Assembly: GCA_016192205.1 (NCBI GenBank)
Contig: JACPUP010000029.1
Location: 1-55,578 of the forward strand
Direction: 5' to 3'
From: Candidatus Kerfeldbacteria bacterium
GTDB taxonomy: Bacteria > Patescibacteriota > Patescibacteriia > SBBC01 > JACPUP01
DNA: 55,578 nt
Shown: piece after piece, positions 1,021 through 37,248 of the stretch
How positions within the stretch are numbered: position 1 is the first letter of the stretch
Layout: each line of letters starts with the position of its first letter
The notes under the pieces: model-generated
Database searches by the model: none
What the model was told of the DNA's origin: nothing
The model's input: only the letters and a program-made list of their open reading frames with translations
Program-made: the position numbers and the translations under genes

Positions 1021-3741
1021 ATGTCGCTGCTGGTAAAACTGTTTGGGGATCCGAACCGAAAAACCGTCGGCGCGCTCCAGCAACGCGTGGCGCGCACCAA
1101 TGCCCTGGAGGCCGAGGTCAGCGCGCAGTCCGACGAACGCCTGAAGCTGACCGTCAACGAGCTACGAAAAACCCAGCCTGATTTTTCGGCGCTCGACCAA
1201 CACCTCGAGCGCGTCTTCGCCATCGTCCGCGAAACCGCCAAGCGCCAACTCAAACAACGCCCCTATGACGTGCAACTGATTGGCGGCATGGCGTTAAACG
1301 ACGGCCAGATTGCCGAGATGAGGACCGGCGAGGGGAAAACGCTGGTCGCCACGCTGCCGGCCACCCTCAACGCGCTCACCGGCCGCGGTGTGCACGTCGT
1401 CACCGTGAACGATTACTTGGCTAAGCGTGACGCTGTTTGGATGGGCCCCATTTACCAGGCACTGGGCGTTACCGTCGGTTCCATCCAGCACGAGGCAGCG
1501 TTTCGGTACGATCCCACCTACACCGATGCGCCGGAAACCGCTCGTTTCCTGCGGCCGGTCTCACGCCGCGAAGCGTATGCCTGCGACGTGCTCTACGGAA
1601 CGAACAATGAGTTTGGCTTCGATTACCTCCGCGATAACATGGTGGCGGATGTGTCCCAGAAGGTCCAGCGGCCGCTCGCGTACGCCATCGTCGACGAGGT
1701 CGACTCGATTCTCGTCGATGAAGCGCGAACGCCACTCATCATTTCCGCGCCCGCCGAGGAATCAACCGATCAGTACTACCGTTTTGCCCAACTCGTGCGA
1801 ACGCTCACCGAGGGTGAGGACTACAACGTCGACGAGAAGATGAAAGCTGCCACGCTGACCGACGCGGGCATGACCAAGATGGAACGTGCGCTCGGCGTGG
1901 AGAACATCTACGCGGTCGATGGAATCGAGCTCGCCCATCACATGGAGCAGGCCCTCAAGGCGCACGCCTTATTCAAGCTTGATCGCGACTACGTTGTCCG
2001 CGCAGGCGAAGTCGTCATCGTGGACGAGTTCACCGGGCGGCTCATGTTTGGCCGACGGTACTCCGAAGGGCTTCACCAAGCGATTGAAGCCAAGGAAGGC
2101 GTGGCGATAAAGCAGGAGAGCCGGACGCTGGCCACCATCACGTTCCAGAACTACTTCCGGCTGTACCAGAAACTTTCGGGGATGACCGGGACCGCGCTCA
2201 CTGAAGCCGAGGAGTTTGCCAAAATCTACAACCTCGATGTGGTGGTTATCCCGACCAACCGACCCATGGTTCGCGCTGATCGGCCGGACGCAGTATTCGT
2301 CAATGAGCAGGGAAAATTTCAAGCGGTCGTACGGGAGATCAAATCACGCCACCAAGCCGGACAACCGGTGCTCGTGGGCACTATTTCCATCGAGAAGAAC
2401 GAAATCCTCCATGAGCTGCTCGAACGTGAGGGCGTGCCGCACGAGGTGCTGAATGCCAAGAACCACGAGCGCGAAGCAGCTATCATTGCGCAGGCTGGTC
2501 GCAAGGGTGCGGTGACCATTGCCACGAACATGGCCGGTCGTGGCGTCGACATCATCTTAGGCGGCACCGGCGCGGACAAACCCGCCCAAGACGAGATTCG
2601 CGCACTCGGCGGGGTGCACGTACTCGGCACGGAGCGTCATGAAGCTCGGCGGATTGACAACCAGCTCCGTGGCCGCACGGGCCGGCAGGGCGACCCCGGT
2701 TCGTCCCAGTTTTTCGTGTCGCTCGATGATGACCTCATGCGCGTGTTCGGCTCGGACCGCGTCAAGGGCATTATGGAGCGTTTGAACGTGCCGCCAGACC
2801 TGCCGATTGAAAACCGGGTGGTGTCGCGCTCCATCGAAGCGGCCCAGAAGAAAATCGAAGGCCGGAACTTCGACCTCCGCAAGCACTTAGTCGAGTACGA
2901 CGACGTCATGAACAAGCACCGTGAGGTCATCTACCGTCGCCGCAACCGCGTGCTCGCCCAAGCGGGTTCGGAAACACTCGAACAGGTGAGCGAGCTCGTC
3001 GATGCGGAAATCGAGCACGTCGTAGCCTTCCACACGGCCGGGGAGCATGAACGCGACTGGAACCTCAAGGAGATCGTGGAAACGGTCGATGCGATGTTCG
3101 GCTTGACCGAAGGGCGAGCCGAAGTAGAGGGCACACTGCGGGATATCGCCAAAGACCGTCGCGAACAAGCCAAAGCCCGTGATGCGATGTGCGCCTCCTT
3201 GTCCGAGCGTGCGGATCAAGCGCTCCAGGCATTGGGCAAACGTCTCGGCGGTGACGAGCGTTTGTCAGTGGCTGCGCGGTCTGTACTCTTACGGACCATC
3301 GACGCGCTCTGGATCGAGCACCTGGACCAAATGGACCATTTACGCGAGGGGATCGGGCTGCGTGGCTATGGCCAACGCGATCCGCTCGTTGAGTACAAGC
3401 GGGAAGCATTCCGGCTCTTTCAGCAGCTGACGCAGAGTATTGATGCGTCGTTCGTCAATACCCTCTTCAAGATTCAGCCCGCACCACCTTCGACGGTATC
3501 AACCACGCTCACCCGCGCGCGTCAGGTTGAGTCTGGGCCAGCGAAAGAGAGCACCTCATCGTCTGCGATCCGCGCTCTGGCAACGGGTGAGCCAGCCCGC
3601 GCACCCGGTGCGCAGCTGACAGCGGAGAGCCAAGAGCCGACTGCCACCGCGCCAGGACGTTATCACGGCCAGAAAGTCGGCCGCAACGAACCCTGCCCGT
3701 GCGGTTCGGGCAAGAAATTCAAGAAGTGCCATGGTGCGTAA
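1021..3741 (+). CDS. secA: Preprotein translocase ATPase SecA
   Basis: 906 aa. [12 protein letters not shown] start, Walker [27 protein letters not shown], and the C-terminal zinc motif [14 protein letters not shown]. Confidence 0.97.
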
Positions 3742-3746
3742 AACGC

Positions 3747-3774
3747 CGAATAATGAATAGCGAATAACGAATGG
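3747..3774. repeat. Degenerate heptamer tandem repeat (CGAATAA TGAATAG CGAATAA CGAATGG)
   Basis: Read directly from the sequence just after the secA stop. Four units only. Confidence 0.5.
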
Positions 3775-3901
3775 CGGGAGGGCCGCGAAGAATCAGGACT
3801 GAAATTCAGAATATTCAAACGTCTTGCTTACCAACGAACCGTTCAGGCGCTGAAAACCCAGTCAACAATTCTACAATTCCACAGACGCATTCTCGCCCTG
3901 C

Positions 3902-3930
3902 TTGATTTATCATAGAAAACGTGCTACACT
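3902..3930 (+). promoter_or_regulatory. Sigma70-type promoter with extended -10
   Basis: TTGATT (3902-3907), 17-nt spacer ending in TGC, TACACT (3925-3930). Lies in an AT-rich island of a GC-rich genome. Confidence 0.5.
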
Positions 3931-3978
3931 TTGAAATGTAGTTCTTTCAAGACGAAAACAAAAAGAAAAAGAAAAGCG

Positions 3979-4070
3979 ACCCTAGAGGTCAACAAGTGCC
4001 TTTAGGAACATAAGAGGGTTTCAACGAGGCCTGGCCTCTAGGGTTCCATCCCCCTGCACCGAGAGTGCAG
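3979..4070 (+). promoter_or_regulatory. Structured 5' leader (candidate cis-regulatory RNA) of the FG-GAP/YkuD gene
   Basis: Perfect 10-bp helix ACCCTAGAGG (3979-3988) / CCTCTAGGGT (4035-4044), extendable to 12 bp. A second hairpin CTGCAC-cgaga-GTGCAG lies at 4054-4070. An A-rich tract (3951-3978) precedes both. Confidence 0.3.
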
Positions 4071-4093
4071 ACGGGTCATTTACGGTAAGTAAG

Positions 4094-5515
4094 ATGGATA
4101 ACGAATCTGGAATTCCGGAGCACGGGACGAAAGTCCTCATCGCGCTTGGTGGAAGCCTCATGAGTTTCCTGGTGTTCGTTGGTTCAGCGTCGGCCGGTTC
4201 CACCCCGAACGAGATCCGCGTACTCACACCAGCTGGTGAAAAACAGCAGGCGTTTGCCTTCGGTGACAAAGAGCTCCGCCGCGGTGCGGAAATCGCCACT
4301 GGTGACGTTGACGGCGACGGGGAACTCGAGATTGTCGCTACGCCAACGTACAGAGCCAAGCCGAATGTACGAGTCTTTTCATCGAGCGGGACACTCCGGA
4401 CGGACTTCGACGTCCTCGACCGTAAGTTTACTGGTGGTGTGAACCTTGCCGTCGGTGATGTCACCGGTGACGGCGTTGCCGAAATCGTTATCGGTGCTCG
4501 CGATGGCGGCGGACCGACCGTTGAAGTCTACACGAACACGGGACAGCGACTGGCAACCTTCGTTGCGTACAGCCCGAAATATCGCGGCGGAGTCGACGTC
4601 GCCACCGGCGACATTGACGGCGACGGGGTCGAGGAAATCGTCACTGCCGCCGGATTCGAATCTTCGGGACACATCCGCGCGTTCGAGGGCGATGGACGTG
4701 AAACCGTGACCTCGGTTTTCCCTTTTGGTACCAGCGGGCAGTTCGGTGCACGCGTCGCCGTCGGCGACGTTGATCCCGACAGCCCGTATGAGGAAATCGT
4801 CGTCGTACCGTTATCCGATCATGCACCGCAGGTCAAGATTCTTTCGAACCGCGGCAAGACGCTCAAGACCATCACTGCTTTTTCCGCCAGCCGCACCAGT
4901 GGCCTGTCCGTGACGACCCTCCAGGCCGATGCTGACGCGAGCGAGGAAATTGCCGTCATTGTCCGCAACTGGCGTCCGCACCTGCGCGTTTTGAATGCCG
5001 ACGGGTCGCGCCTCACGAGTACGTACGCATTTGCCAAATCGTTCGTCGGTGACGTTTCCTTGACCGCAGGCGGTGCCAACACGCTCCTGGCGTCCGTAAC
5101 AAAACTCCGGGCCAGCGGCCGCAGCGACCTTCCCCGCTCCATCGAGATTGACTTGTCCGACCAAAAACTCACGTATTACCGCAAAGGTGTTACGGTGGCA
5201 ACCCGAGCAGTCTCCACCGGCAAATGGTCAATGCCCACACCCACCGGGACGTTCAAAACCCGCAACAAGATTCGCACCGCCTACTCAAGCCGGTATGCGC
5301 TCTACATGGATTACTGGATGGCGGTCACGCCCGATGGCTCCTACGGCATCCACGCGCTGCCGTTTTGGAAATTGAAGAACGGCGGTCGCATCTATGAAGG
5401 CGAAGACCACCTTGGGACACCCGTATCCCATGGCTGCATTCGCCTTGCGCCGAGCGCTGCGCGCGAGCTCTACGAATGGGCACCCGTGGGCACAGCCGTC
5501 TTCATTCGTCCGTAA
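4094..5515 (+). CDS. Secreted/membrane-anchored FG-GAP repeat propeller fused to a YkuD-type L,D-transpeptidase domain
   Basis: N-terminal hydrophobic segment. Repeated GDVDGDGELEIV / GDVTGDGVAEIV / GDIDGDGVEEIV / GDVDPDSPYEEIV (FG-GAP/VCBS-like). C-terminal YkuD catalytic motif HGTPVSHGCIRL. Confidence 0.85.
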   Translation: MDNESGIPEHGTKVLIALGGSLMSFLVFVGSASAGSTPNEIRVLTPAGEKQQAFAFGDKELRRGAEIATGDVDGDGELEIVATPTYRAKPNVRVFSSSGTLRTDFDVLDRKFTGGVNLAVGDVTGDGVAEIVIGARDGGGPTVEVYTNTGQRLATFVAYSPKYRGGVDVATGDIDGDGVEEIVTAAGFESSGHIRAFEGDGRETVTSVFPFGTSGQFGARVAVGDVDPDSPYEEIVVVPLSDHAPQVKILSNRGKTLKTITAFSASRTSGLSVTTLQADADASEEIAVIVRNWRPHLRVLNADGSRLTSTYAFAKSFVGDVSLTAGGANTLLASVTKLRASGRSDLPRSIEIDLSDQKLTYYRKGVTVATRAVSTGKWSMPTPTGTFKTRNKIRTAYSSRYALYMDYWMAVTPDGSYGIHALPFWKLKNGGRIYEGEDHLGTPVSHGCIRLAPSAARELYEWAPVGTAVFIRP

Positions 5516-5523
5516 TGTTCTGA

Positions 5524-5553
5524 TTGACCCGAACCCACCGGCGGTGGTACGCT
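5524..5553 (+). promoter_or_regulatory. Possible sigma70-type promoter for secDF
   Basis: TTGACC (5524-5529), 18-nt spacer ending in TGG, TACGCT (5548-5553). ATG is 22 nt downstream. Confidence 0.35.
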
Positions 5554-5575
5554 ACCTCCGCTGTTTTCGCTTTCC

Positions 5576-7255
5576 ATGACCTCCCGCACGAAACTCGGGC
5601 TCACATTTTTCAGCCTCATCGTCCTCCTCGCGCTCGCCGTCCTCGTTGACGTGCCTGGCGGCCCGGATCTGCGTGTCGGCTCGTGGCACAAGGAAATGAA
5701 AGTCCACCTCGGGCTTGATTTGAAAGGCGGGACGCGGCTCATCTACGACGCGGACGTGAGCGGTTTGCCCGGGGGTGAGGAATCCTCGGCGTTGGACGGC
5801 GTGCGGGACGTGATTGAACGTCGCGTCAACCAGTTTGGCGTGTCCGAACCGATCGTCCAGACGAGCGAGGCCGGCGGACAGCACCGGATTATCGTTGAGT
5901 TGGCTGGTGTGCAGGATGTCGACGCTGCGATACAACAGATTGGTGAAACACCGCTGCTGGAATTCAAAGAGCTAGGCACACCGGCTCCGCTGATTCCCGA
6001 AGACCTGGCCGCGGCCGAGGCCTTCAATCGAGAACAACGCGCAAAAGCCGAGCGGGCGCTGGCTGACGTCCGTGCGCCCAATGCGGATTTTGCCGCCATC
6101 GCAAGCGAACGCTCCGAAGACACGGGGTCGGCGCCGAGCGGCGGTGACATTGGTTTTCAGCGGAGGGAAAATCTCGTCACCGAATACGCCGACGTCCTCT
6201 TCGATCAGCTCGAAGACGGTCAGCTGTTCGATCAACTGGTAGAATCGCCGTTTGGCTATCACGTCATCAAACGAACGGAATCACGCGCGTCCGGGGAAGG
6301 GGAGAGCGCCGTGACCGAGGTGCGCTCACGTCACATCCTTGTCCGGACGCGAGAAACCCATCCAGAAGAGACCGAGCAAACCTACGTCGAGACTGGACTG
6401 ACCGGCGAGCACCTCGACAACGCCCAGGTATCGTTTGACCAGCAGACGGGCCAGCCGGACGTTGTGTTGAAATTCAACGACGAGGGAAAACAACTCTTTG
6501 GCGATATTACCACTCGGAACCTCAACCAGCCGGTTGGCATTTTCTTGGACGGTCTCCCCATCTCCGAGCCGATTGTCCAAACCGAGATTACGACTGGTGA
6601 AGCGACGATCAGCGGTGACTTCGATCTGTCAGAGGCGAAGGAGCTCGCCCAGCGTCTCAATGCTGGTGCCCTGCCCGTGCCGATTACCCTCGTGAACCAA
6701 ACGACCGTCGGCCCGACGCTCGGTCGCGTCTCCATCGAGCGCAGTTTCTTCGCTGGTCTCGTTGGCCTGGCCGCGGTAGTACTGTTCATGCTCCTCCAGT
6801 ACCGATTCCTCGGCTTCATCGCGGTGCTCTCCCTCTTCGCGTACACAGCGTTGACCTTTGCCATTTTTAAACTCTGGCCGGTCACGCTCACGCTGGCCGG
6901 TGTGGCCGGGTTCATTCTGTCTATTGGCATCGCCGTGGATGCGAATATCCTCATTTTCGAACGCATCCGCGAGGAACTGCGCAGTGGCCGGCTCCTCGGA
7001 GATGCCGTCGAGGAAGGCTTCCAGCGCGCCTGGCTCTCCATCCGTGACTCCAACGTCTCGAGCCTCATCACGACGTTCATCCTGGCCTGGTTCGGCACGG
7101 GCATCATCAAGGGGTTTGCCATCACCTTGGCGATCGGGATCCTCGTCTCCATGTTTTCGGCCGTGACCATCGCTCGAACATTACTGCGCCTGACTGCCAA
7201 GCGGTGGCTCCAGCGTCACCCGAAGTTCCTGAGCGTTGAGCACGTGAGCGAGTAG
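5576..7255 (+). CDS. secD: Protein-export membrane protein SecD with an inserted parvulin-like module
   Basis: N-terminal TM, HLGLDLKGG, IIVELAGV, GETPLLEF, LDGLPISEPIV, and a C-terminal 6-TM SecD/F core (GIAVDANILIFERIREE). The insert at about aa 133-268 carries GGDIGF...SPFGYHVIKR. Confidence 0.93.
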   Translation: MTSRTKLGLTFFSLIVLLALAVLVDVPGGPDLRVGSWHKEMKVHLGLDLKGGTRLIYDADVSGLPGGEESSALDGVRDVIERRVNQFGVSEPIVQTSEAGGQHRIIVELAGVQDVDAAIQQIGETPLLEFKELGTPAPLIPEDLAAAEAFNREQRAKAERALADVRAPNADFAAIASERSEDTGSAPSGGDIGFQRRENLVTEYADVLFDQLEDGQLFDQLVESPFGYHVIKRTESRASGEGESAVTEVRSRHILVRTRETHPEETEQTYVETGLTGEHLDNAQVSFDQQTGQPDVVLKFNDEGKQLFGDITTRNLNQPVGIFLDGLPISEPIVQTEITTGEATISGDFDLSEAKELAQRLNAGALPVPITLVNQTTVGPTLGRVSIERSFFAGLVGLAAVVLFMLLQYRFLGFIAVLSLFAYTALTFAIFKLWPVTLTLAGVAGFILSIGIAVDANILIFERIREELRSGRLLGDAVEEGFQRAWLSIRDSNVSSLITTFILAWFGTGIIKGFAITLAIGILVSMFSAVTIARTLLRLTAKRWLQRHPKFLSVEHVSE

Positions 7256-7258
7256 CGT

Positions 7259-8146
7259 ATGTTTCAGATTATCCGCCACCGGCGCATCTTCCTCGCCTTC
7301 TCCGCGCTCCTCGTTGTCCTGGGAGTGGCGGCCTTTGCCGTGTGGGGTCTGAAACTCGGTATTGATTTTACCGGTGGCACCATTGTCCAGTACGAAGGCG
7401 TGGACGAGACGGCGCGCGGTGTATTGCGGTCGACGTATGCGGACGCAGGCCTTTCCCCGGTCCTGCAACGCGTTGGCGCGGACGGCGTCAGCATCCGATT
7501 GAGTGAACTGTCGCTCGACGATCAGGCGTCGCTCCGCGACGCGGTCAGCGCTGCGTTGCCAAACATCACCGAGACGTCGTTCGAGACTATTGGTCCGACC
7601 ATTGGTCGTGAGCTTCGTCAGAAAGCGGTCGTGGCCACTGCCCTCGTGTTGGTTGGCATCGTCCTCTACGTTACCTGGGCGTTTCGTCGCGTGTCGATCG
7701 GACCAGTACGCGCCTGGGTCTACGGTGCCGCCACCATCATCGCGCTCGCTCACGATTTGGTTGTCGTCATTGGCGTGTTCGCGATCCTGGGAACATTTTT
7801 CAATGTGGAAATCGACAGCCTCTTCGTCACTGCCCTTCTGACAGTCCTTGGGTTCTCCGTCCACGACACTATCGTGGTGTTTGACCGGATCCGCGAACGT
7901 CTTGGCCTGACCGAAACACAACAGTTTGCAGAGACGGTCAACGAGAGCGTCAACCAGACCATGGTCCGCTCGCTCGCGACCTCGGCCACAACACTCCTCG
8001 TGCTCGTCGCGCTCTTCCTCTTCGGCGGCGAGAGCATTCGCTACTTCACTCTGGCATTGGTCGTTGGCATCGTCTCTGGTACGTACTCCTCCATTTTCGT
8101 CGCCAGTCCGTTGCTCGTGGTCTGGGAGCGCTGGAGAAACACTTAA
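7259..8146 (+). CDS. secF: Protein-export membrane protein SecF
   Basis: GIDFTGGT motif and the SecF TM core (SVHDTIVVFDRIRE). Starts 3 nt after secD. Confidence 0.93.
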   Translation: MFQIIRHRRIFLAFSALLVVLGVAAFAVWGLKLGIDFTGGTIVQYEGVDETARGVLRSTYADAGLSPVLQRVGADGVSIRLSELSLDDQASLRDAVSAALPNITETSFETIGPTIGRELRQKAVVATALVLVGIVLYVTWAFRRVSIGPVRAWVYGAATIIALAHDLVVVIGVFAILGTFFNVEIDSLFVTALLTVLGFSVHDTIVVFDRIRERLGLTETQQFAETVNESVNQTMVRSLATSATTLLVLVALFLFGGESIRYFTLALVVGIVSGTYSSIFVASPLLVVWERWRNT

Positions 8147-8191: not shown

Positions 8192-8220
8192 TTGACAGAA
8201 TAACAAATCTGTGCTATACT
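8192..8220 (+). promoter_or_regulatory. Near-consensus sigma70 promoter with extended -10
   Basis: TTGACA (8192-8197), 17-nt spacer ending in TGC, TATACT (8215-8220). An A/T-rich tract lies upstream at 8170-8191. Confidence 0.6.
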
Positions 8221-8260
8221 AGTCTACAAGGAGAAATCCTGCGCGAACCCTTCAGTTTTT

Positions 8261-9397
8261 ATGGACAGCGGGAACTCGATCATCGATCGCATCCTCACCT
8301 CCAAGCAAACCGAGGCGATGGAGCATTTGAGCCCCTCCGAAACCGTGTCGCAACTGCTCAAGGCGCTGACAGAGAAAGAGGCAGATGTGGTACGCCGTCG
8401 CTATGGTTTGAACGGTCTCCGGCGGGAGACGCTCGAAGATATTGGCAAGCAGTATCGGGTCACGCGCGAGCGTATCCGCCAGATTGAGCGCCTCGCCATT
8501 AAGAAAGTCGTCGCCCTCAAAGACTTTGACGTGATTACCCGACCGACGACGACGGCAGTCTCGCAAGTGCTGTCTTCACACGGCGGTTTTCTGGAGGAGC
8601 AGGCACTCCTCCGAACGCTCCTCCAGATTGCGGGGGATACACCGGAGAACTGTAACGCCATGCTCTTTTTGCTTCATGAACTTCTGGGAGAGCATTTCGA
8701 TCACATCGATGCCAACCGACGTTACCACGCCGGTTGGCGGATGCGGCTCTCGTCGATGGAGCAACTCGACACGCTCGTAAACCGCCTCGTCGCGTTTTTT
8801 GAAAACGTTGGCCATCCCCTCGCGCACGACGAGTTCATCCATCGCTTCCGTGGCGTCGAGGGTCAGGCCGCCGTGAGCGATGACGCGCTCTTGGCCGCCG
8901 TCGATGTTGCAATAGCCCTCGGCCACAACCCATTCGGTGAGTATGGCCTCACGGAGTGGGGACACATTGCACCCCGCCGCATGAACGACAAAATCTTCCT
9001 CGTGCTCAAGCGCGCAGGCGAGCCCCTGCACTTCATGGAAATCGCCAAACGCATCAACGAGGCGGGCTTCGATGATCGGAAAGCGTATCCGCCGACCGTG
9101 CACAACGAACTCATCCTGGATCCGCACTACGTCTTAGTCGGTCGCGGCATCTACGCGTTGAAGGAATGGGGCTACGAACCCGGCATTGTCGCCGATGTCC
9201 TTGCCAGCGTCCTGCGACGGGCGGGCCGGCCCTTGGAGCGTGATGAGCTCGTGGAGGCCGTTCTCAAGCAACGGATGGTCAAACGGAACACGATTCACCT
9301 CGCCCTCACCGACCGCGAACGGTTCTCCCGCCATCAGAACGGGACCTACACCCTCACCGACCGCCAAACGAATGCCACTCCTCCAGCTCGTCATTGA
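8261..9397 (+). CDS. Sigma-70 region-4-only protein fused to tandem HARE-HTH-like winged-helix modules
   Basis: aa 30-86, LTEKEADVVRRRYGL...ETLEDIGKQYRVTRERIRQIERLAIKK, is sigma region 4.2. No region 2 is present. C-terminal modules end in FGEYGLTEWG, VGRGIYALKEWGY and NGTYTL (HARE-HTH pattern). Confidence 0.7.
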   Translation: MDSGNSIIDRILTSKQTEAMEHLSPSETVSQLLKALTEKEADVVRRRYGLNGLRRETLEDIGKQYRVTRERIRQIERLAIKKVVALKDFDVITRPTTTAVSQVLSSHGGFLEEQALLRTLLQIAGDTPENCNAMLFLLHELLGEHFDHIDANRRYHAGWRMRLSSMEQLDTLVNRLVAFFENVGHPLAHDEFIHRFRGVEGQAAVSDDALLAAVDVAIALGHNPFGEYGLTEWGHIAPRRMNDKIFLVLKRAGEPLHFMEIAKRINEAGFDDRKAYPPTVHNELILDPHYVLVGRGIYALKEWGYEPGIVADVLASVLRRAGRPLERDELVEAVLKQRMVKRNTIHLALTDRERFSRHQNGTYTLTDRQTNATPPARH

Positions 9398-10721
9398 CGT
9401 GAGCGGGATTACCGCTACGAGTTTCAGCAATCCATTTGCGACGGCCGCTTTCCTTTTCATCAATGGAGGGTGGGTCATTGTCGTCCCGGCGATTCTCTGG
9501 GGATTGTGGCAAGCGTACGTCCTCTACATTCAGCTCCGCTACGACGCGTCGATCGAATTCATCCTGCTCGCGATTGACGTTCCAAAAGAAAACGAACAGA
9601 GCCCCAAGGCGGTTGAGCAAATCTTCGCCCACCTCTCCGGCATCCAGAAGAAGGCGAATCTCGTTGAGCGATTCATTCATGGATACAACCAGCAAAGCTT
9701 CTCTTTGGAACTCGTATCGATCGGCGGATACATCCAGTTCATCATTCGGACTCCCAAAGAGCATCGCGATCTGGTCGAGGCCGCAGTCTACGCCCAGTAC
9801 CCAGACGCGGAAATCAGCGAGATCGACGACTACGTGCCGCAGCTGAAGCCTGATTTTCCCAACGAGTACAACCTGTGGGGAACTGAGTTCAAGTTGACCG
9901 GCGCGCCGCCAAAGCCCATTCGAACCTACCCATCGTTCGAGCATACGCTGTCCCAGAAGTTTCTCGACCCCATGGCGTCCACTCTGGAAATCATGTCGCG
10001 GCTCCGGCCCGGCGAGCAGATTTGGCTTCAGCTCAATGTCACCCCAACACTCGACGACCGCTGGCGCGAAGCTGGGGAACGACTCATCAGAAAACTCATA
10101 AAGGCAAAAGTGGAGCAGGGTGGGGGAGGAGTGCTCGGGCTTCCCGGAAACGTTGCCCTCGGCACGTACGAAACACTCACCCGAACACTGTTCGAACCAG
10201 GCGCCGAAGAGAGAAAGCAAGACACGAGTAAGTTCCCAACGCTCATGCAGCACCTGCCACCGAACGAGAAGGCTGTCGTGGAATCGATCGGTATTAAAAT
10301 TTCCAAAATTGCGTACGAAGCGAAGTTCCGTTTCATCTATTTCGCGCATCGGTCCGTCTTCGACAAGAGCCGTGTCCCAGCGGTCGTGGGCGCCATCAAG
10401 CAACTCAACACGCTCGATTTGAACGGGCTCATTCCGAACAAAAAAATCTCCACCAAGATTGATTACTTCATGATTCGGACGCGAGAGCGATGGCGCAAAG
10501 CCAAGCTGTACTACGGGTATCGTGCTCGCAGCATGCGCCGCGGGCAGAAGAAGCTCGTTCTCAACGTCGAAGAGCTGGCCACCATTTACCACTTCCCGGT
10601 CATGGACGTAAAGGCGCCGCTCGTCAAGCGTACGGAGAGTAAGCGCAGTGAACCGCCGCTCGCCCTGCCGGTCGCCCCGCCGGAAATTCAAGGAGCCGTC
10701 GAAGCGCCACCACCCCGATGA
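9372..10721 (+). CDS. Membrane-anchored protein of unknown function (partner of the downstream ATPase)
   Basis: N-terminal hydrophobic hairpin (AAFLFINGGWVIVVPAILWGLWQAYVLYI), then a soluble domain of about 400 aa. The ORF-track start at 9186 overlaps the previous gene. I use ATG 9372. In-frame GTG 9399 is an alternative. The stop overlaps the next ATG (ATGA at 10718-10721). Confidence 0.65.
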   Translation: MPLLQLVIDVSGITATSFSNPFATAAFLFINGGWVIVVPAILWGLWQAYVLYIQLRYDASIEFILLAIDVPKENEQSPKAVEQIFAHLSGIQKKANLVERFIHGYNQQSFSLELVSIGGYIQFIIRTPKEHRDLVEAAVYAQYPDAEISEIDDYVPQLKPDFPNEYNLWGTEFKLTGAPPKPIRTYPSFEHTLSQKFLDPMASTLEIMSRLRPGEQIWLQLNVTPTLDDRWREAGERLIRKLIKAKVEQGGGGVLGLPGNVALGTYETLTRTLFEPGAEERKQDTSKFPTLMQHLPPNEKAVVESIGIKISKIAYEAKFRFIYFAHRSVFDKSRVPAVVGAIKQLNTLDLNGLIPNKKISTKIDYFMIRTRERWRKAKLYYGYRARSMRRGQKKLVLNVEELATIYHFPVMDVKAPLVKRTESKRSEPPLALPVAPPEIQGAVEAPPPR

Positions 10722-12409
10722 CCCCGTACACCGCCAACGAGGACGAGATTAACTACTTTGCCAAAACGAACTTTCGTAACGTCTGGAAATTGTTTGGCAT
10801 CCGTTTGGACGACCGCCGGCGCCACCTGTACGTCATCGGGAAAACCGGCATGGGGAAATCAACCATGCTCGAGAACATGGTCGTGCAGGACATCCGGAAC
10901 GGCCACGGTCTGGCCCTCGTCGATCCGCACGGCGACGCGGTGGAAAAAATACTCGATTACATTCCGTCGAACCGCGTCAACGACGTCATCTACTTCAACC
11001 CGGCCGACATCGACCACCCCATCGCCTTCAACGTTTTGGAATCGGTCGACCCGACACACCGCCACCTCGTCTCGTCGGGACTCATCGCTATTTTCAAAAA
11101 ACTCTGGATTGATTCCTGGGGGCCACGACTCGAATACGTATTGCGGAACACCATCCTCGCCCTCATTGAGTACCCGGGCTCAACCCTCCTCGGCGTCACG
11201 CGCATGCTCGTCGACAAAAATTATCGCAGCAAAGTCATCGCCAAGTTGACCGACCCCATTGTCAAAGCGTTCTGGGTCGATGAGTTCAATGCGTACTCGA
11301 ATCAGTTTCGGACCGAAGCGGTCAGCCCCATCCAAAACAAGGTCGGGCAGTACCTGTCTTCGTCGATAATCCGCAATATCGTCGGGCAGCCGCAATCATC
11401 CGTCGACCTTCGCGACGCGATCGACAGCGGCAAAATCATCCTCATGAACCTGGCCAAGGGACGCATTGGCGAAGACAACTCGCAATTGTTGGGCGCCATG
11501 CTCATTACGAAGTTGCAACTCGCGGCCATGAGTCGCATCAACATCGCCGAATCCGAGCGACGCGACTTCTTCTTGTACGTCGATGAGTTCCAGAATTTCG
11601 CGACCGAATCGTTTGCCAATATCCTGTCGGAAGCGCGCAAGTACCGTCTCAATCTCATTATCGCGCACCAGTACATCGAGCAGCTGACCGAAGAGGTGCG
11701 AGCGGCGGTCTTCGGAAACGTCGGCACGCTCGTCTGCTTCCGCATCGGGGCAGCTGATTCAGAATTCCTCCAGAAAGAATTCGACCCGGTGTTCTCGGAA
11801 TCCGATTTGGTCAACCTGACAAAGTACGACGTCTACCTCAAGCTCATGATCAACGGCTTGGCATCGGATCCATTCTCTGCGACGACACTCCCGCCCATCT
11901 CCCGCCACGAAGGCAACGCCGAAACCGTCATCCGCGTTGCTCGTGAGCGCTACGCCAGCCCGCGCGAACGTGTCGAAGAGAAAATCGCTCGCTGGGCGGC
12001 TGGCGTCCACGCCGGCGAGGCTGGACAGCCGATTGGCGCACGCCCACCGCGTGGTCGCCCACCGGAACGACGCGAGCGCGATACGCCGCGGACCATCCCT
12101 CCGCCCCAGCAACTCGAACCCGTTGCCCACATTCCAACCGAAGCGCCCATTTCCCTGGCCCAAGCGCTGACGCGCGAGCCCCAGCCATTCCACAAGGCCG
12201 GGCCGCCGTCGGCCCCGAAACGGAGAGCGTTTGAGCCGCGACGTGACCGCAGCCGGCATCGTCATCACCGACCGCCACGTGCCAACACCCCAGGGCAACC
12301 GCAGACGACGAAACCGACACCGCCCCCGTCTGTTCCTCCGTCAGCACACGTTGAGGATGAACCCACGCCCATTCAACCTGGGCAAGTGGTCCAGGTGAAA
12401 GACGAGTAA
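10718..12409 (+). CDS. VirD4/TraD/TraG-like (type IV coupling protein-like, FtsK/HerA-superfamily) P-loop ATPase lacking TM segments
   Basis: Walker A GKTGMGKS, LVDPHGD, Walker B FFLYVDEFQNF, SEARKYRLNLIIAHQYIEQL. No N-terminal TM helices. About 130 aa of Pro/Arg-rich low-complexity C-terminal tail. Confidence 0.8.
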   Translation: MTPYTANEDEINYFAKTNFRNVWKLFGIRLDDRRRHLYVIGKTGMGKSTMLENMVVQDIRNGHGLALVDPHGDAVEKILDYIPSNRVNDVIYFNPADIDHPIAFNVLESVDPTHRHLVSSGLIAIFKKLWIDSWGPRLEYVLRNTILALIEYPGSTLLGVTRMLVDKNYRSKVIAKLTDPIVKAFWVDEFNAYSNQFRTEAVSPIQNKVGQYLSSSIIRNIVGQPQSSVDLRDAIDSGKIILMNLAKGRIGEDNSQLLGAMLITKLQLAAMSRINIAESERRDFFLYVDEFQNFATESFANILSEARKYRLNLIIAHQYIEQLTEEVRAAVFGNVGTLVCFRIGAADSEFLQKEFDPVFSESDLVNLTKYDVYLKLMINGLASDPFSATTLPPISRHEGNAETVIRVARERYASPRERVEEKIARWAAGVHAGEAGQPIGARPPRGRPPERRERDTPRTIPPPQQLEPVAHIPTEAPISLAQALTREPQPFHKAGPPSAPKRRAFEPRRDRSRHRHHRPPRANTPGQPQTTKPTPPPSVPPSAHVEDEPTPIQPGQVVQVKDE

Positions 12410-12444: not shown

Positions 12445-12480
12445 GTCGGTCATTCGTCTGGCCGACTGTTTTCCTGTTTC
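12445..12480 (+). terminator. Weak hairpin plus T-rich tract (terminator of the upstream operon, or a leader attenuator)
   Basis: GTCGG (12445-12449) / CCGAC (12462-12466) with a 12-nt loop (10 nt if T12450 pairs with G12461 as a wobble), followed by tgttttcctgtttc. The stem is short, so this is tentative. Confidence 0.2.
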
Positions 12481-19402: not shown

Positions 19403-20848
19403 ATGCCCGCGCCGGACCAACCACCAGGACAACTGACGAGGAATACCGCGTACCTGACGGTGGCTTCTATCGTCCAGAAAATCCTGGCCTTCGCGTACTT
19501 CGTCGTTTTCGCTAATCTCATCGGCACGCAGAACACCGGCTCGTTCTTCTTCGCGGTTTCTTTTGCGAACCTCTTCGGCATTTTCGTCGATCTGGGCTTC
19601 TCGCCGATGGTCATCCGCGATGTCGCGCGCGATCCGAGCCGGGCTCGAGCGATCTATTCTGCCGTCATGCGGTTCAAGGTCTGGACAGCGATCACCACCA
19701 CCGTGGCTCTCGTTGGCATCGCACCGTTCATCATTCATGATGCGTTAACGCGTTGGTTGCTCGTCCTGGCGGCGCTCGTGATGGTTTTCGAATCCTTTGC
19801 GCTGACAGCGTACGGCGTCCTGCGCGGGCTGCAACGGTTACGATTCGAGGCGGTTGGATCGACCATCAGCCAAGTGCTCATCTTGCTCGTGGGCGTGACC
19901 GGGCTCGTCGCCACCCGACAACCCATCTGGCTTGGGATTGCGCTGCTGGCGGCCAGCCTCTTCAACGTGACGTACGCGACGACGCGGCTCCGGGCGGCGC
20001 TCCCGCCCAGCGCTGGCACGGGACCGGCCGGCTTACCCTGGAGCAAACGCGCGATGAGCCCGTTCTTCCTCTCGGGCCTCTTCGTCAGGGTCTACGCGTA
20101 CGTCGACACCGTCTTGGTCGGACTGCTCTCGACCAGCCACTACGTTGGTCTCTATGGGGCCGCCTACCGCATCACGTACGCGCTCCAGTTCCTCCCCGTC
20201 GCGTTCAACACAAGCGTGTACCCAGCGTTGAGCCAAGCGTTTGAGCTGTCGCGTGAACGCTTGGAGCACCTCATTGTGCTCTCGCTGCGTGGCTTGTCCT
20301 TCCTAAGCTTTCCGATCGCAGCGCTCATCATCGTCCACGCCCGACCCATCCTCGCACTGATCACGCCTGAATTCGTCGACGCCGCACTCGCACTGCAAAT
20401 CTCCATCGCGAGCGTCCCGTTCCTCTTCATCAACCTGTTCCTCACCTCCCTCCTGAACGCAATGAATCGTCAGGTGAACAATACGATCGGGCTGGGCGGC
20501 GTGGTGACGGTGAATGTCCTGCTCAACCTCATGCTCATTCCGCAGTGGCAGCACGTTGGCGCGAGCATTGCCGCACTCGCGAGCGCGATCACCTTCACCG
20601 TGTACGGATTCATCGCGGCGCGCGATCGTATCGCGTGGCGGAGTCTCGGTGCCTTCGCAGTCCGACTCGGCCTCGCCACCGCAGCGATGACGCTGGTCTC
20701 GCTGGTGCTGGTCGATCGCCTTCCCGTTCTCGTGTCGTTGGCTTTGGGTGGGGGAGTCTACGTCATCGGCAGCATGCTCGCGCGAAGCATCAGCCGGTCG
20801 GAGTTGGCACTGCTCGTGCGGCAGCTTCGGCAGCGGGGAAGCGTATGA
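19403..20848 (+). CDS. MOP-superfamily oligo/polysaccharide flippase (Wzx-like)
   Basis: 481 aa and about 12-14 TM. The N-terminal pattern resembles polysaccharide-biosynthesis (Wzx) proteins rather than MurJ. The stop overlaps the next ATG (ATGA). Confidence 0.75.
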   Translation: MPAPDQPPGQLTRNTAYLTVASIVQKILAFAYFVVFANLIGTQNTGSFFFAVSFANLFGIFVDLGFSPMVIRDVARDPSRARAIYSAVMRFKVWTAITTTVALVGIAPFIIHDALTRWLLVLAALVMVFESFALTAYGVLRGLQRLRFEAVGSTISQVLILLVGVTGLVATRQPIWLGIALLAASLFNVTYATTRLRAALPPSAGTGPAGLPWSKRAMSPFFLSGLFVRVYAYVDTVLVGLLSTSHYVGLYGAAYRITYALQFLPVAFNTSVYPALSQAFELSRERLEHLIVLSLRGLSFLSFPIAALIIVHARPILALITPEFVDAALALQISIASVPFLFINLFLTSLLNAMNRQVNNTIGLGGVVTVNVLLNLMLIPQWQHVGASIAALASAITFTVYGFIAARDRIAWRSLGAFAVRLGLATAAMTLVSLVLVDRLPVLVSLALGGGVYVIGSMLARSISRSELALLVRQLRQRGSV

Positions 20849-23628
20849 AGCGCGTCGTCCTCGTTGCAGCATTCTTTCCCCCTGACCGAGGCGGTATTGA
20901 AGCAACGGCCGAGACGATCGCTCGGCACTTCGCTGACCGGTGCACGGTCGTGGCGCCACCCCACGACGCTGCCCGGCGCTACGACGGGGAACAGGCGTTC
21001 CGCGTTCGCCGCATGCCAATCTTCGAGCGAGGGCAATGGCCGAGTTGGCGCCGGTTCGCCTCCAGACTCGCCGCCGTCTGCGTGGAAGAGCGCGCCGACC
21101 TTGTCCTCTTTGCCCACTACGCGCCGTACGTGTGGGCTGGCCGCTGGCTGCACCGTGCGCTGGGAGTCCAGACAGCGGTCTACCTCCACGGCTTTGATTT
21201 TCTCGCCTACACGCCTTCTCCGGCGCATCGTCTCCTGCTGCGACGCAGTCTGCGCGAAACCGGGTCGGTTCTCGTCAATAGCCAGTGGACCTCACGCCAA
21301 CTGGCACCGTATCTGCCCATCCACCGGCACGGCTTGCTCTATCCGCCGGTCGCCGCGAACCGCTGCCCGGTCACACCGGTTCCCGCCACGCACACCGTAA
21401 CTTCGCTGGGGCGCTGGACGAGCATCAAAGGGTACGATACGGCCATCGCCGCCGTGAGCAAGCTCCGTCCGCACTACCCCGACGTTTCTTACCGCCTCTT
21501 GGGCAGCGGTCCGGCCGAACCGTCATATCGTGCGCTCATACGGCGCCTTGGCATCGAGGCGAACGTCTCGTTGGAACCCGCGTCCGATGAACGCGACCGG
21601 TGCGAAGCGTTGGCCGCAAGTTCCATTTTTCTCCAACCGAGCCGCAGTCTGCTCCATCCAACCTACGTCCAGGAAGAGAGTTTTGGCGTTGCCGCGCTCG
21701 AAGCCAATGCGGCCGGCCGACCCGTCGTCGCCTCGCGCGTCGGCGGGGTTCCGGAAGCAGTGGTCGACGGCGTGACCGGCATCTTGGTTCCGCCTGACGA
21801 CCCGACCGCCCTGGCGGACGCAATCGCGGCCCTGTGGGAGCAACCAACGATGCTCCGGGCAATGGCCGCACAAGGGCCCGAGCACGTCCGCCGGACGTTC
21901 GGGACCGAGCGGTTCGTCGCGCGGCTGGAACGGCTGCTCGGATTGATGACGGACCGACCGCGCGTGTCCATTTGCATCCCGGCGCGCAACGCTGCCCGCA
22001 CGCTCGGCGCAACGCTCGATTCTCTCCTGACGCAAGACTACCCGAACCTCGAGTGGATTGTGGTGGATGATCAGTCCACCGACGCCACGCCAGCCATTGC
22101 CACCCGTGACCCGCGGGTCCGACTCGTCCGAGGGGAGGCGCGCGGTGCAGCTGCTGCTCGCAACCTCGCGGCCCGTCACGCCTCCGGCGAATTCCTCTAC
22201 TTCTCCGACGATGACTGCGTGCACCGGCTCGACGCCATCCGAACCCTCGTTGACGCGCTCGAACGCCAGCCGTCAGCCGCCTTTGCGTACTCGTCGTTCC
22301 GCTTGGGCTGGAAAACGTTCAAGCTTCGACCGTTTGATCTGGCTGCGCTCCGCGAGCGGAACTACATCTCGACCCGTGCGCTCATCCGCCGGAGAGACTT
22401 TCCGGGGTTCGATGAGTCGTTGCAGCGGCTCCAGGATTGGGACTTGTGGTTGCGCATGGGAGCGCAAGGCCGGCCCGGGATCTGGGTCAACGAAGCGTTG
22501 TATCGCCAGGACCCGGGATCGAACTCGATGAGCAGCCGCTGGTTCCCCAAGTTCCTGTACCGTTTTCCGCGGCTGGCTGATCGGCTGTCGCGCGGCGCGG
22601 GCATGAGCCTGCGCGAAGCAGAAGCCATTGTGCTCCGAAAACACCCGGCGCGCCTTCCGCTGTCGCCAACCGAACAGTGGTCCTGTCCACGCTGTCGCCG
22701 AACGCTCCCAACGCAGTTCCCGGCCGTGTGTCCGCGCTGTCAAGTGCGATTTGCAACCGTCCATGGCATTCCCGTTTTCCTCCATCCTGCCTACTTCGAC
22801 ACCTTTAAGCAAACCGAGGTGGCTGCGCACAGCCACGACCCAGAGCCAGGAGCAAACCGCATCGCGCCGCGCAACCGCCACTACCACCAGCAGCCAAAGC
22901 GGCGATTACTCGATGCACCGACCCGCAGCCACGTCCTCGAAGTCGCGTGCGGAAACCGGCCTGACAGTTTTGAACTTGCCCAGCACGGGCTGTTCGTGAC
23001 TGCGACAGACATTGCCCTAGCGAGGGTGGAGCGCGCTCGGGAAGCAGCGCGTCAGTTGGGCCTGTCCCATCGAATGCGCTTCGCTGTCGCGGACGCAGAG
23101 CATCTTCCATTTCTGAATCGCCAGTTCGATGCCGTGCTCACCGCCGCCTCCTTCCACCACTTTCCCCACCCAGCGAACGCCCTGCGCGAACTGCGCCGCG
23201 TCGTCCGCCCGGGCGGCCTGATCGTCCTGGAGCTCGAGCCCCAACGCTGGCCCTACCGGACGGTGTTCCGGCTCCTCGGTCCGCTGCGCCGCGTGTTCCG
23301 CAACCAGGAGCACGGTGTCCAGCATTCGCTCGGCGATGACACCACCCAAGGGTTCACCGCGGCGGAATTGCGCGCACTCTGCCGAAACGCGAACCTCGAA
23401 GTCCTCTCCCTCCGTCCGGCGAAAATCCTGACAGAGCTCGCCGATCAGACGACGCGTTTCCTCGCGAAAGCGTTGGGCCGAACCTGGGACACCCCCCATC
23501 TTCTTCTGACCGTCTTGAGCCTGGCCGATCGCGTCCTCGAGCACAGCCCCGGCGTGAACCGGGTGAGCTGGCATTGGAATCTCGTGGCCCGCGTCCGCGA
23601 GGAGAGCCAGGAATCGGCGCAGGCTTGA
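20845..23628 (+). CDS. Tri-functional fusion: GT4 glycosyltransferase + GT2 glycosyltransferase + Zn-ribbon + class I SAM methyltransferase
   Basis: Start re-set to ATG 20845 (MKRVVLVAAFFPP). GT4 motif: EESFGVAALEANAAGRPVVASRVGGVPE. GT2: VSICIPARN...VVDDQSTD...FSDDDC. Zn-ribbon: CPRC...CPRC. MTase: VLEVACG...VVRPGGLIVLE. Confidence 0.85.
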   Translation: MKRVVLVAAFFPPDRGGIEATAETIARHFADRCTVVAPPHDAARRYDGEQAFRVRRMPIFERGQWPSWRRFASRLAAVCVEERADLVLFAHYAPYVWAGRWLHRALGVQTAVYLHGFDFLAYTPSPAHRLLLRRSLRETGSVLVNSQWTSRQLAPYLPIHRHGLLYPPVAANRCPVTPVPATHTVTSLGRWTSIKGYDTAIAAVSKLRPHYPDVSYRLLGSGPAEPSYRALIRRLGIEANVSLEPASDERDRCEALAASSIFLQPSRSLLHPTYVQEESFGVAALEANAAGRPVVASRVGGVPEAVVDGVTGILVPPDDPTALADAIAALWEQPTMLRAMAAQGPEHVRRTFGTERFVARLERLLGLMTDRPRVSICIPARNAARTLGATLDSLLTQDYPNLEWIVVDDQSTDATPAIATRDPRVRLVRGEARGAAAARNLAARHASGEFLYFSDDDCVHRLDAIRTLVDALERQPSAAFAYSSFRLGWKTFKLRPFDLAALRERNYISTRALIRRRDFPGFDESLQRLQDWDLWLRMGAQGRPGIWVNEALYRQDPGSNSMSSRWFPKFLYRFPRLADRLSRGAGMSLREAEAIVLRKHPARLPLSPTEQWSCPRCRRTLPTQFPAVCPRCQVRFATVHGIPVFLHPAYFDTFKQTEVAAHSHDPEPGANRIAPRNRHYHQQPKRRLLDAPTRSHVLEVACGNRPDSFELAQHGLFVTATDIALARVERAREAARQLGLSHRMRFAVADAEHLPFLNRQFDAVLTAASFHHFPHPANALRELRRVVRPGGLIVLELEPQRWPYRTVFRLLGPLRRVFRNQEHGVQHSLGDDTTQGFTAAELRALCRNANLEVLSLRPAKILTELADQTTRFLAKALGRTWDTPHLLLTVLSLADRVLEHSPGVNRVSWHWNLVARVREESQESAQA

Positions 23629-23703
23629 TGGGGAAGGCGAGAGTATGCACAATACAGGCGCCTCCGAATCCATCGTAACCTCCGTGTTGCCTGACCGAAA
23701 CGA

Positions 23704-26959: not shown

Positions 26960-26962
26960 GCT

Positions 26963-31133: not shown

Positions 31134-31135
31134 CG

Positions 31136-31164
31136 TTGTCGTCGAGGGCATCTCGTGGTATAGT
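31136..31164 (+). promoter_or_regulatory. Possible sigma70-type promoter with extended -10 for holB
   Basis: TTGTCG (31136-31141), 17-nt spacer ending in TGG, TATAGT (31159-31164). ATG is 15 nt downstream. Confidence 0.45.
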
Positions 31165-31179
31165 CGCGACGCCTTTGCT

Positions 31180-37245: not shown

Positions 37246-37248
37246 TGT

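Follow-up and report, generated by a model that had tools for sequence, protein, structure and literature searches.

The window analysed here, a 55,578-bp contig from a metagenome-assembled genome of Candidatus Kerfeldbacteria within the Patescibacteria or Candidate Phyla Radiation (CPR), carries three consecutive genes, referred to below as g1, g2 and g3, downstream of secF and upstream of mnmA. The last two encode the halves of a split, translationally coupled and membrane-anchored VirD4-type ATPase. The family to which it belongs is found across the phylum, is inherited vertically and is independent of type IV secretion system (T4SS) clusters. This family, in which the domain DUF8128 is combined with a VirD4-like ATPase, is much more widespread than VirB4. 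We consider it rather probable that the products of g2 and g3 together act as a T4SS-independent, membrane-anchored translocase that is core to Patescibacteria and probably serves DNA. The three genes are arranged as follows:

8261-9397, + strand: g1, 378 aa, sigma-70 region 4 followed by winged helices including HARE-HTH
9372-10721, + strand: g2, 449 aa (ATG at 9372), DUF8128 (PF26449), putative N-terminal module of the translocase
10718-12409, + strand: g3, 563 aa, VirD4/TrwB-like ATPase without transmembrane helix, putative motor half

The association of g2 with g3 was assessed in 80 species-level related loci from GTDB genomes, covering Kerfeld-, Buchanan-, Magasanik-, Uhr-, Falkow-, Morani-, Doudna- and Terrybacteria, of which 72 contained enough sequence to judge adjacency. 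In 56 of these 72, g3 directly follows g2, the two being separated by a median of 13 nt. When a profile built from nine g2+g3 chimeras was used as query, PF26449 was found together with PF10412, PF01935 or PF12696 on a single chain of 824-1315 aa in at least 120 protein clusters, with a query coverage of 91-98% for nearly all of them and with Peregrinibacteria and Jacksonbacteria amongst their sources. The two proteins also match successive parts of the same profile, phrog_5156, g2 at profile positions 61-358 and g3 at positions 407-806. As they are adjacent in most loci and naturally fused in many others, we regard g2 and g3 as one machine. The proposal of a joint module in the first-pass annotation of this DNA, which hinged on the gene pair being syntenic in relatives, is thereby strengthened; its description as a novel local module is not, since the pair instead represents a phylum-wide core family whose orphan type IV coupling protein (T4CP) homologues have already been counted (PMC12102498).

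Analysis of g3 was carried out on its sequence, on an alignment of 50 homologues (A2) and on an AlphaFold2 model. The features located in it are:

10838-10861, + strand: Walker A motif GKTGMGKS, g3 residues 41-48, invariant in A2
11567-11590, + strand: Walker B motif FFLYVDEF, g3 residues 284-291, VDEFQNFA invariant in A2, aligned to the Walker B region of TrwB
12008-12406, + strand: Pro/Arg-rich C-terminal tail, residues 431-563, disordered as judged from composition and low predicted local distance difference test (pLDDT) scores
12143-12166 and 12371-12391, + strand: conserved short tail motifs PISLAQAL and IQPGQVV, respectively

The motifs from which g3 had been read as a coupling-protein-like ATPase, GKTGMGKS, FFLYVDEFQNF and SEARKYRLNLIIAHQYIEQL, are all present in the protein, and the assignment is upheld by the Pfam searches, in which TrwB_AAD_bind (PF10412; 3e-9, 36.7 bits against a cutoff of 20.5) and TraG-D_C (PF12696; 9e-6, 26.1 bits against a cutoff of 22) are passed and DUF87 (PF01935; 7e-5) is narrowly over threshold. 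FtsK_SpoIIIE (PF01580) remains under threshold with 13.7 bits against 24 and covers the P-loop only, so that a grouping with FtsK/SpoIIIE, which the first-pass annotation had named as undercutting its proposal, is not borne out. Neither a 4TM, alpha or gamma domain nor a HAS barrel was detected in g3 with Pfam and NCBIfam, and the protein scores far under all NCBIfam TraD/VirD4 equivalog cutoffs (48 bits versus 366). Its only sequence relatives in the PDB are TrwB and DotL. Profile comparison using hhalign aligns 262 columns of g3 with TrwB (probability 95.6%, E 1e-8; R388 reference record NC_028464), whereas with TrwK, the VirB4 of the same plasmid, the P-loop alone is aligned (probability 1.8%). 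The structural model (pLDDT 67) is good in its core and poor at residues 320-390 and in the tail; its best Foldseek matches are TrwB (2e-9), DotL and Cag-beta, followed by the C-domain of DndH (1.8e-7) and HerA, with TrwK at 4e-4. Between the core strands the model contains an all-alpha insertion (helices 112-236). On these grounds g3 is predicted to be a VirD4/TrwB-type motor and not an FtsK, HerA or VirB4 protein. Its assignment as a VirB4 C-terminal domain was rejected because of the TrwB-like results of both hhalign and Foldseek, and a role as FtsK replacement was rejected because Southlakia epibionticum, another member of the phylum, has its own essential FtsK.

The g3 sequence is under very strong constraint, with intact Walker A and Walker B motifs and more than 170 columns, both Walker motifs included, that are invariant across the 50 homologues. 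The last 133 aa (23% Pro, 13% Arg, low pLDDT) correspond to the disordered Pro/Arg-rich tail of about 130 residues noted before. In the homologues the tail is otherwise variable and holds two conserved motifs, PISLxEAL and a C-terminal LxPGQVV, with conserved alignment columns at S479, L480, A483, P554 and G555.

No transmembrane (TM) helix was found in g3, where the highest 19-residue Kyte-Doolittle mean amounts to 1.27, so that the description of a TM-less ATPase is correct for this gene product. It does not hold for the family, in which the TM helix is found at the N-terminus of the same protein; the 'TM-less coupling protein' is explained by gene fission within a family of the layout TM helix, DUF8128, VirD4-like motor and tail.

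The helix resides in g2, whose product is identical to the NCBI protein HYZ09_01670. Its assignment to PF26449 (DUF8128) derives from the precomputed annotation of that identical protein, and nearly all listed homologues carry the same annotation; in our own Pfam-A scan no family was matched by g2 or 71 relatives at E up to 10, the PF26449 model seemingly missing from the copy used. DUF8128 forms a large family (1974 clusters at 50% identity, E up to 1e-3) whose named sources are all patescibacterial, and the domain is not mentioned in the literature searched. An AlphaFold2 model calculated from a 71-sequence alignment (A1) reached a pLDDT of 86 and a predicted TM-score (pTM) of 0.82 and shows one continuous helix (21-60), an alpha/beta domain (61-410) and a C-terminus that is conserved but disordered; conserved in this C-terminal region is the pattern VKAPL..K.E.K..EPP..LP. 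Two features follow from hydropathy and model:

9441-9527, + strand: single TM helix, approximately residues 24-52, by hydropathy and the modelled helix 21-60, predicted N-out with the domain cytoplasmic
9552-10601, + strand: cytoplasmic alpha/beta domain, residues 61-410, predicted fold similar to the VirB4 N-terminal domain

The N-terminal hydrophobic hairpin ascribed to this protein by the first-pass annotation is replaced in our analysis by one hydrophobic segment within a single long helix, and hydropathy likewise finds exactly one such segment in 55 of 71 family members. Across the family the count of Lys plus Arg is 0.36 before the helix and 2.58 after it, and we therefore place the domain in the cytoplasm. 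Of the two functions that had been suggested for g2, membrane anchor or channel, that of an anchoring partner is favoured by tight synteny, translational coupling and natural fusions; the channel is not retained.

Foldseek comparison of the g2 model, one of the checks proposed at the outset, gave as its top 14 PDB matches exclusively TrwK/VirB4 chains from structures of the R388 T4SS (best E 2.5e-5, Foldseek probability 1.0 for the top 12), these being the only significant ones, although at low TM-scores (0.31-0.35) and with no sequence support. The matches include chain 8rtd_h (457 residues), which does not figure amongst the top 50 Foldseek matches of g3. In the BFVD database the model matches two proteins of Bacillus phage G, gp156 (3.5e-17) and the VirB4-like ATPase gp155 (5.8e-7), and, at 8e-4, one that is annotated 'Component of type IV transporter system'. 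No TrwB, HerA or FtsK chain was matched by the g2 model with Foldseek, and as a degenerate ATPase domain should give such matches, DUF8128 is read as resembling the VirB4 N-terminal domain. Sequence profiles give a different result: the A1 profile finds nothing amongst PDB sequences at E up to 10 and aligns to TrwK with a probability under 1%, none of the 71 DUF8128 members has a CagE_TrbE_VirB-type Pfam match, and hhalign of DUF8128 against an alignment of 12 plasmid-derived VirB4 N-terminal domains yields a probability of 0.6%. A sequence-level link between DUF8128 and VirB4 was rejected given that all of these profile tests are negative, and for the same reason we propose a VirB4-N-terminal-domain-like fold for the cytoplasmic domain on fold-level evidence only. 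After VirB4, the next PDB matches of the g2 model are chains of the mycobacterial ESX-3/ESX-5 type VII secretion systems (6umm_A with E 8e-3, 6sgz_D and 7b9f_E), which are marginal.

Within its neighbourhood g3 is the most conserved gene. The median identity to the window proteins across related loci is 63% for g3, compared to 50% for SecD, 46% for SecF, 41% each for MnmA and AlaS, 40% for g2 and 36% for g1. The gene order secD-secF-(g1)-g2-g3 was observed in 41 of 65 loci of many patescibacterial lineages (window 1021-8146; L001-L082), and several loci additionally have secA and a gene for an FG-GAP/YkuD L,D-transpeptidase upstream. Many genomes contain a second, more divergent T4CP-like paralogue (L085:17618-18817, L028:8259-9704, L023:9-1130); in L085 this paralogue, too, is fused to DUF8128, at a distance of 7 kb from the first.

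Several observations concern the relation of the family to T4SSs. The Pfam scan of 20 larger or unassigned open reading frames (ORFs) of the 55-kb window revealed only housekeeping and envelope functions and no VirB4, VirB6, relaxase, pilin, integrase or T4SS domain, in accordance with the earlier statement that none of these is encoded nearby. No VirB4 was found in the 80 related loci, and no relaxase or T4SS gene amongst the called genes of four related loci, three of which carry fused genes (L084, L085 and L086) with housekeeping neighbours. On a larger scale, Quinonero-Coronel et al. surveyed 3,035 Patescibacteria genomes and counted 5,713 VirD4-like T4CP homologues, distributed over 2,918 of them (96%); 148 of the homologues are located near virB4, while VirB4 of the patescibacterial clade was found in 2,407 assemblies (about 79%) and relaxases in 103 of the genomes surveyed (PMC12102498). 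According to these authors, exaptation of the orphan T4CP homologues 'cannot be ruled out' (PMC12102498).

Genetic data are available for Southlakia epibionticum, where SEML1_0293 appears to be the fused g2-g3 ortholog, as judged from length, domain position and synteny rather than from its sequence. Table S1 of Wang et al. lists it as a protein of 921 aa with TrwB_AAD_bind at residues 402-719, marked as a member of a core, 'Patescibacteria-enriched' family (PMC10633639). In transposon sequencing (Tn-seq) SEML1_0293 was non-essential at all three time points, as were comEC, comF and dprA, whereas the T4SS cluster is essential, as is the separate FtsK (PMC10633639). In contrast to SEML1_0293, a second T4CP-like paralogue of this organism, SEML1_0142, is essential; it comprises 1019 aa, has its P-loop at residues 381-800 and gave no match in Pfam (PMC10633639 Tables S1/S2). 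The com systems of CPR bacteria are listed as ComEC, DprA and ComFC only, without the ComFA motor, and the annotation tables of Southlakia do not contain the term 'ComFA' (PMC10633639). Taken together, the wider distribution of T4CP homologues over genomes compared to VirB4, the rarity of T4CP genes near virB4 (PMC12102498) and the essentiality of the Southlakia T4SS compared to the dispensable SEML1_0293 lead us to regard the g2-g3 family as independent of T4SSs.

Relatives of the complete architecture occur in giant and SPO1-like Bacillus phages. gp156 of phage G, 825 aa in length, contains DUF8128 at residues 8-324 (hhalign 98.3%, E 2.4e-14), followed by a g3-like ATPase in its C-terminal half (tblastn E 2e-40); as judged from this alignment, in which only seven residues precede the domain, an N-terminal TM helix is unlikely. 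The protein is annotated 'MsbA-like', and directly upstream of its gene lies that of gp155, a VirB4-like ATPase (P-loop_TraG, AAA_10), making gp155-gp156 a VirB4/VirD4-like pair within a 497-kb phage (NC_023719 89194-93336; L099:2223-6365). In SPO1 (L100:774-6284) and CP-51 (L102:829-6314) a T4CP-like protein of 906-911 aa has a weakly DUF8128-like N-terminus, and its gene lies between one for a 'partition protein' and one annotated 'replication initiation by nicking'. For SPO1 both the weak DUF8128 signal (36%) and a Replic_Relax domain (in gp27.3) were confirmed; the CP-51 nickase is identified by annotation. This arrangement resembles a module of plasmids or relaxosomes, here located in a lytic phage. 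The phage proteins are 24-28% identical to g3, CPR-type DUF8128 has one partial match only in IMG/VR, and tblastn of g2 against the phage collection returned nothing. In view of these near-empty searches the phage proteins are to be seen as distant relatives, found by profile and structure only.

Considering these results together, we think that the substrate of the g2-g3 machine is most likely DNA, handled independently of T4SSs, and we favour a role in DNA uptake or processing at the membrane. DNA is suggested by the identity of the closest relatives (T4CPs, HerA and DndH), by the position of the SPO1 and CP-51 homologues between partition and nickase genes, by the Tn-seq phenotype of SEML1_0293, which resembles that of the com genes, and by the CPR com system having no motor of its own, the last point arguing for uptake or processing at the membrane. 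By the same reasoning, the DUF8128-VirD4-like ATPase could be an envelope DNA motor, either the missing ComFA equivalent that pulls DNA through ComEC or one that exports DNA; we put this more specific version forward tentatively and regard it as doubtful. In that case g1 or the conserved tail motifs would act as adaptor for DNA or partners, and the family would represent an ancient architecture, intermediate between VirB4 and VirD4, that it has in common with giant Bacillus phages.

A number of points weigh against a DNA translocase formed by g2 and g3. In 16 of the 72 loci g3 does not adjoin g2. In Patescibacteria the module has no linked nickase, com gene or other gene for DNA processing; the neighbours conserved most strongly are secD and secF (41 of 65 loci), a possible indication of protein handling. 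T4CPs take protein substrates as well. The g3 model is of moderate quality (pLDDT 67, residues 320-390 poorly modelled), and the likeness of DUF8128 to the VirB4 N-terminal domain is one of fold, at TM-scores of 0.31-0.35 and with no profile support, the aligned part of TrwK not being reported. For Southlakia, the presence of DUF8128 at the N-terminus of SEML1_0293 is deduced from length, domain positions and synteny alone. The extreme conservation of g3 sits oddly with non-essentiality in co-culture, and normalised reads of SEML1_0293 drop about four-fold over the passages, from 5817 to 2940 to 1372 (PMC10633639).

Other functions have to be weighed against the same evidence. The protein might be a genuine coupling protein of the patescibacterial T4SS that is encoded away from virB4 and feeds DNA or effectors into this system, with DUF8128 replacing the N-terminal TM domain. 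Such a function would suit the Pfam T4CP thresholds passed by g3, its nearest structures (TrwB, DotL and Cag-beta) and the conserved tail motifs, which resemble partner-recognition tails; moreover, T4CP genes are often found far from virB4 (PMC12102498), and a TM-less T4CP with a separate anchor is known in TraJ and TraI of pIP501 (PMC12857230). We nevertheless judge it unlikely, as T4CP homologues occur in more genomes than patescibacterial VirB4 and seldom near it, relaxases are almost absent from the phylum (109 in 3,035 genomes; PMC12102498), the Southlakia T4SS genes are essential and SEML1_0293 is not, and the conservation of the ATPase is far above that usual for T4SS parts. Alternatively, an ATPase for protein handling or membrane biogenesis that works with Sec would account for the order secA ... 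secD-secF-(g1)-g2-g3. secF lies upstream on the same strand in the majority of loci (41/65), secA is found a few kb upstream in the window, L001 and L086, and recruitment of protein substrates is known for T4CPs such as DotL and VirD4. This order may, on the other hand, be a core arrangement that was simply inherited, as mnmA and alaS on the downstream side are likewise conserved; the fused copies in L084 and L085 do not have sec neighbours, and searches with Pfam and NCBIfam found no similarity to Sec, YidC or chaperone components, which makes a Sec-linked function improbable in our view.

The matches to defence systems were considered in the same manner. g3 matches the PADLOC model mad8 of the MADS defence system (E 9e-19, over most of the profile) as well as HerA models, and together with the structural match to the DndH C-domain (1.8e-7) this shows that T4CP-like motors of this sub-type recur in defence systems. 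Region 4 of g1 furthermore resembles that of MzaA, a protein from a defence system. An anti-phage or anti-plasmid ATPase of the HerA/DndH/MADS kind would, however, be expected in patchy, fast-evolving defence islands, the opposite of this nearly universal and extremely conserved pair, which keeps the same place amongst housekeeping genes. The scanned window ORFs and the three fused-gene contexts show no associated nuclease, methylase or other effector, and the MzaA match is confined to generic sigma region 4. We thus rejected a defence function on distribution and conservation, and consider it highly improbable.

For the preferred reading, a T4SS-independent translocase formed by g2 and g3, the following working model can be drawn. 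The complete architecture would consist of one TM helix, DUF8128, a VirD4/TrwB-type ATPase with all-alpha insertion and a disordered tail; in this Kerfeldbacteria genome the gene is split at the domain boundary, with the ATGA overlap coupling the two halves in translation. By homology with TrwB, g3 would assemble into a hexameric ring that may dock on a ring of g2 domains and be kept at the inner face of the membrane by the N-out/C-in helix. ATP hydrolysis would then move a polymer through or along the ring, and the tail motifs might recruit partners, by analogy with the binding of TraM by the TraD tail.

The first gene, g1, stands in a looser relation to the pair. Two domains were located in it:

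8354-8509, + strand: sigma-70 region 4 domain, residues 32-83, Pfam Sigma70_r4 9e-13
8981-9169, + strand: HARE-HTH, winged helix similar to the delta subunit of RNA polymerase (RNAP), approximately residues 241-303, Pfam HARE-HTH 3e-10

Residues 241-303 are also matched by TIGR04567 (RNAP_delt_lowGC) at 1.9e-5, which is under the cutoff of that model. The PDB sequence matches of g1 span only region 4 of RpoS/SigA, and NCBIfam sigma models match by their C-terminal 60-80 positions only (30-64 bits compared to cutoffs of 240-800). As sigma region 2 was not found in searches of Pfam, NCBIfam and PDB sequences, g1 is not a sigma factor. Of 74 related loci, 42 have a gene of this type immediately 5' of g2, at a median spacing of 99 nt, and such a gene also adjoins the fused gene in L086 and in Southlakia, where SEML1_0294 (Sigma70_r4 plus HARE-HTH), the neighbour of SEML1_0293, is essential (PMC10633639). 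Since the ATPase of that organism is dispensable, g1 cannot be a mere accessory of it. Of its former assignment to a common module with the ATPase, frequent neighbourhood remains: g1 is probably a frequently co-transcribed RNAP- or DNA-binding factor with an essential role of its own, and only possibly an adaptor for the motor.

The two gene overlaps, 26 nt between g1 and g2 (9372-9397) and ATGA between g2 and g3 (10718-10721), were read directly from the sequence. The expression signals assigned to the locus are:

8192-8220, + strand: putative sigma-70-type promoter, TTGACA-17 nt-TATACT with TG extension, 11 of 12 consensus positions, by consensus match only
12445-12466, + strand: terminator-like hairpin between g3 and mnmA, 8-bp stem with 5 G-C pairs and T-rich tail, by pattern match only

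One near-consensus promoter followed by three physically coupled genes, as first described, can thus be confirmed at the level of the sequence. Promoter-like sites are not enriched in the region (2 versus 1.4 expected in shuffles) and neither are terminator-like sites over shuffles. secA, the gene for the FG-GAP/YkuD transpeptidase, secD and secF are found upstream of the module, and mnmA, alaS, infA and ribosomal protein genes downstream of it. These housekeeping flanks, and the lack of T4SS genes here and in the three other contexts mentioned above, agree with the placement of the locus amongst core genes and outside any conjugative element by the first-pass annotation. An integrated element was ruled out in view of the absence of a tRNA from the window and of integrase and relaxase domains from the ORFs scanned, of a GC dip that is only slight (0.57 versus 0.60) and of the synteny kept across lineages. 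No Rfam match or RNA element was found in the region.

Long minus-strand ORFs of up to 445 aa overlap g1-g3 (9354-10691, 8576-9127 and 11759-12298, all on the - strand). They were rejected as genes because they have no homology support, all homology being on the plus strand, and are treated as artefacts typical of coding sequence with about 57-60% GC. Elsewhere in the window, 20545-28927 is an envelope-glycan cluster just upstream of mreB, which encodes a 1027-aa triple fusion of GT4 and GT2 glycosyltransferases with an S-adenosylmethionine (SAM) methyltransferase, a Wzy_C O-antigen-ligase-like membrane protein, another GT2 enzyme and a DUF4012 protein. No Pfam match was obtained for three ORFs of 420-475 aa: 51315-52742 (+), which has a signal-like hydrophobic N-terminus, and 30751-32013 (-) and 36160-37461 (-), which may be spurious.

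Amongst known systems, the T4CPs VirD4, TrwB and TraD (PF10412, PF02534, PF12696) share with g3 the P-loop domain of the FtsK/HerA superfamily with its all-alpha insertion and a disordered C-terminal tail. They usually have an N-terminal TM domain of two helices, which g3 does not possess; its place is taken by DUF8128, a domain of 350 aa that brings one TM helix and is fused to the ATPase or encoded by the gene upstream. The g3 family moreover has no linked relaxase or T4SS and is a vertically inherited core chromosomal gene rather than a gene of mobile elements. VirB4, exemplified by TrwK of R388, has a similar layout of membrane helix, N-terminal domain of about 400 aa and ATPase, and natural VirB3-VirB4 fusions exist. 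It differs in that the g3 motor is closer to TrwB than to TrwK and DUF8128 has no sequence similarity to VirB4 N-terminal domains, and the genuine VirB4 of Patescibacteria is a separate protein encoded elsewhere (PMC12102498). In pIP501 a TM-less coupling-type ATPase, TraJ, has been proposed to use a separately encoded membrane anchor, TraI, a likeness drawn from the description only; unlike g2, TraI is a small protein with two TM helices and no large cytoplasmic domain, and the pair is plasmid-borne within a conjugative T4SS operon with relaxase, unlike the locus studied here (PMC12857230). Phage G gp156, SPO1 gp27.4 and CP-51 gp91 share the architecture of DUF8128 and T4CP-like ATPase, with the difference that the neighbouring gene encodes a VirB4-like ATPase in phage G and a nickase in SPO1 and CP-51. 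FtsK/SpoIIIE and HerA belong to the same additional strand catalytic E (ASCE) P-loop superfamily as g3, HerA being a weaker structural match, and the 4TM, alpha and gamma domains and the HAS barrel are features of theirs that g3 does not have.

The ATPase class and its orphan status in Patescibacteria have been published before, and the apparent Southlakia ortholog has been catalogued as member of a CPR-enriched core family. As far as the searched literature shows, the DUF8128 partner and its fusion to the ATPase, the VirB4-like fold predicted for it, the single-TM topology, the relatives in phage G and SPO1-type phages and the conservation ranking are new.

A large part of bacterial diversity belongs to the Patescibacteria. 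The viability of the Southlakia mutant makes direct assays of transformation, DNA release and host interaction feasible. The DUF8128 partner, which accompanies the orphan coupling protein in fused or adjacent form and resembles the VirB4 N-terminal domain in predicted fold, and the phage counterparts turn a 'possibly exapted T4CP' into a defined, testable object, whose architecture bears on the divergence of VirB4 and VirD4. The ATPase, whose conservation exceeds that of SecD and AlaS, is retained by almost every genome of the phylum and lies apart from the T4SS.

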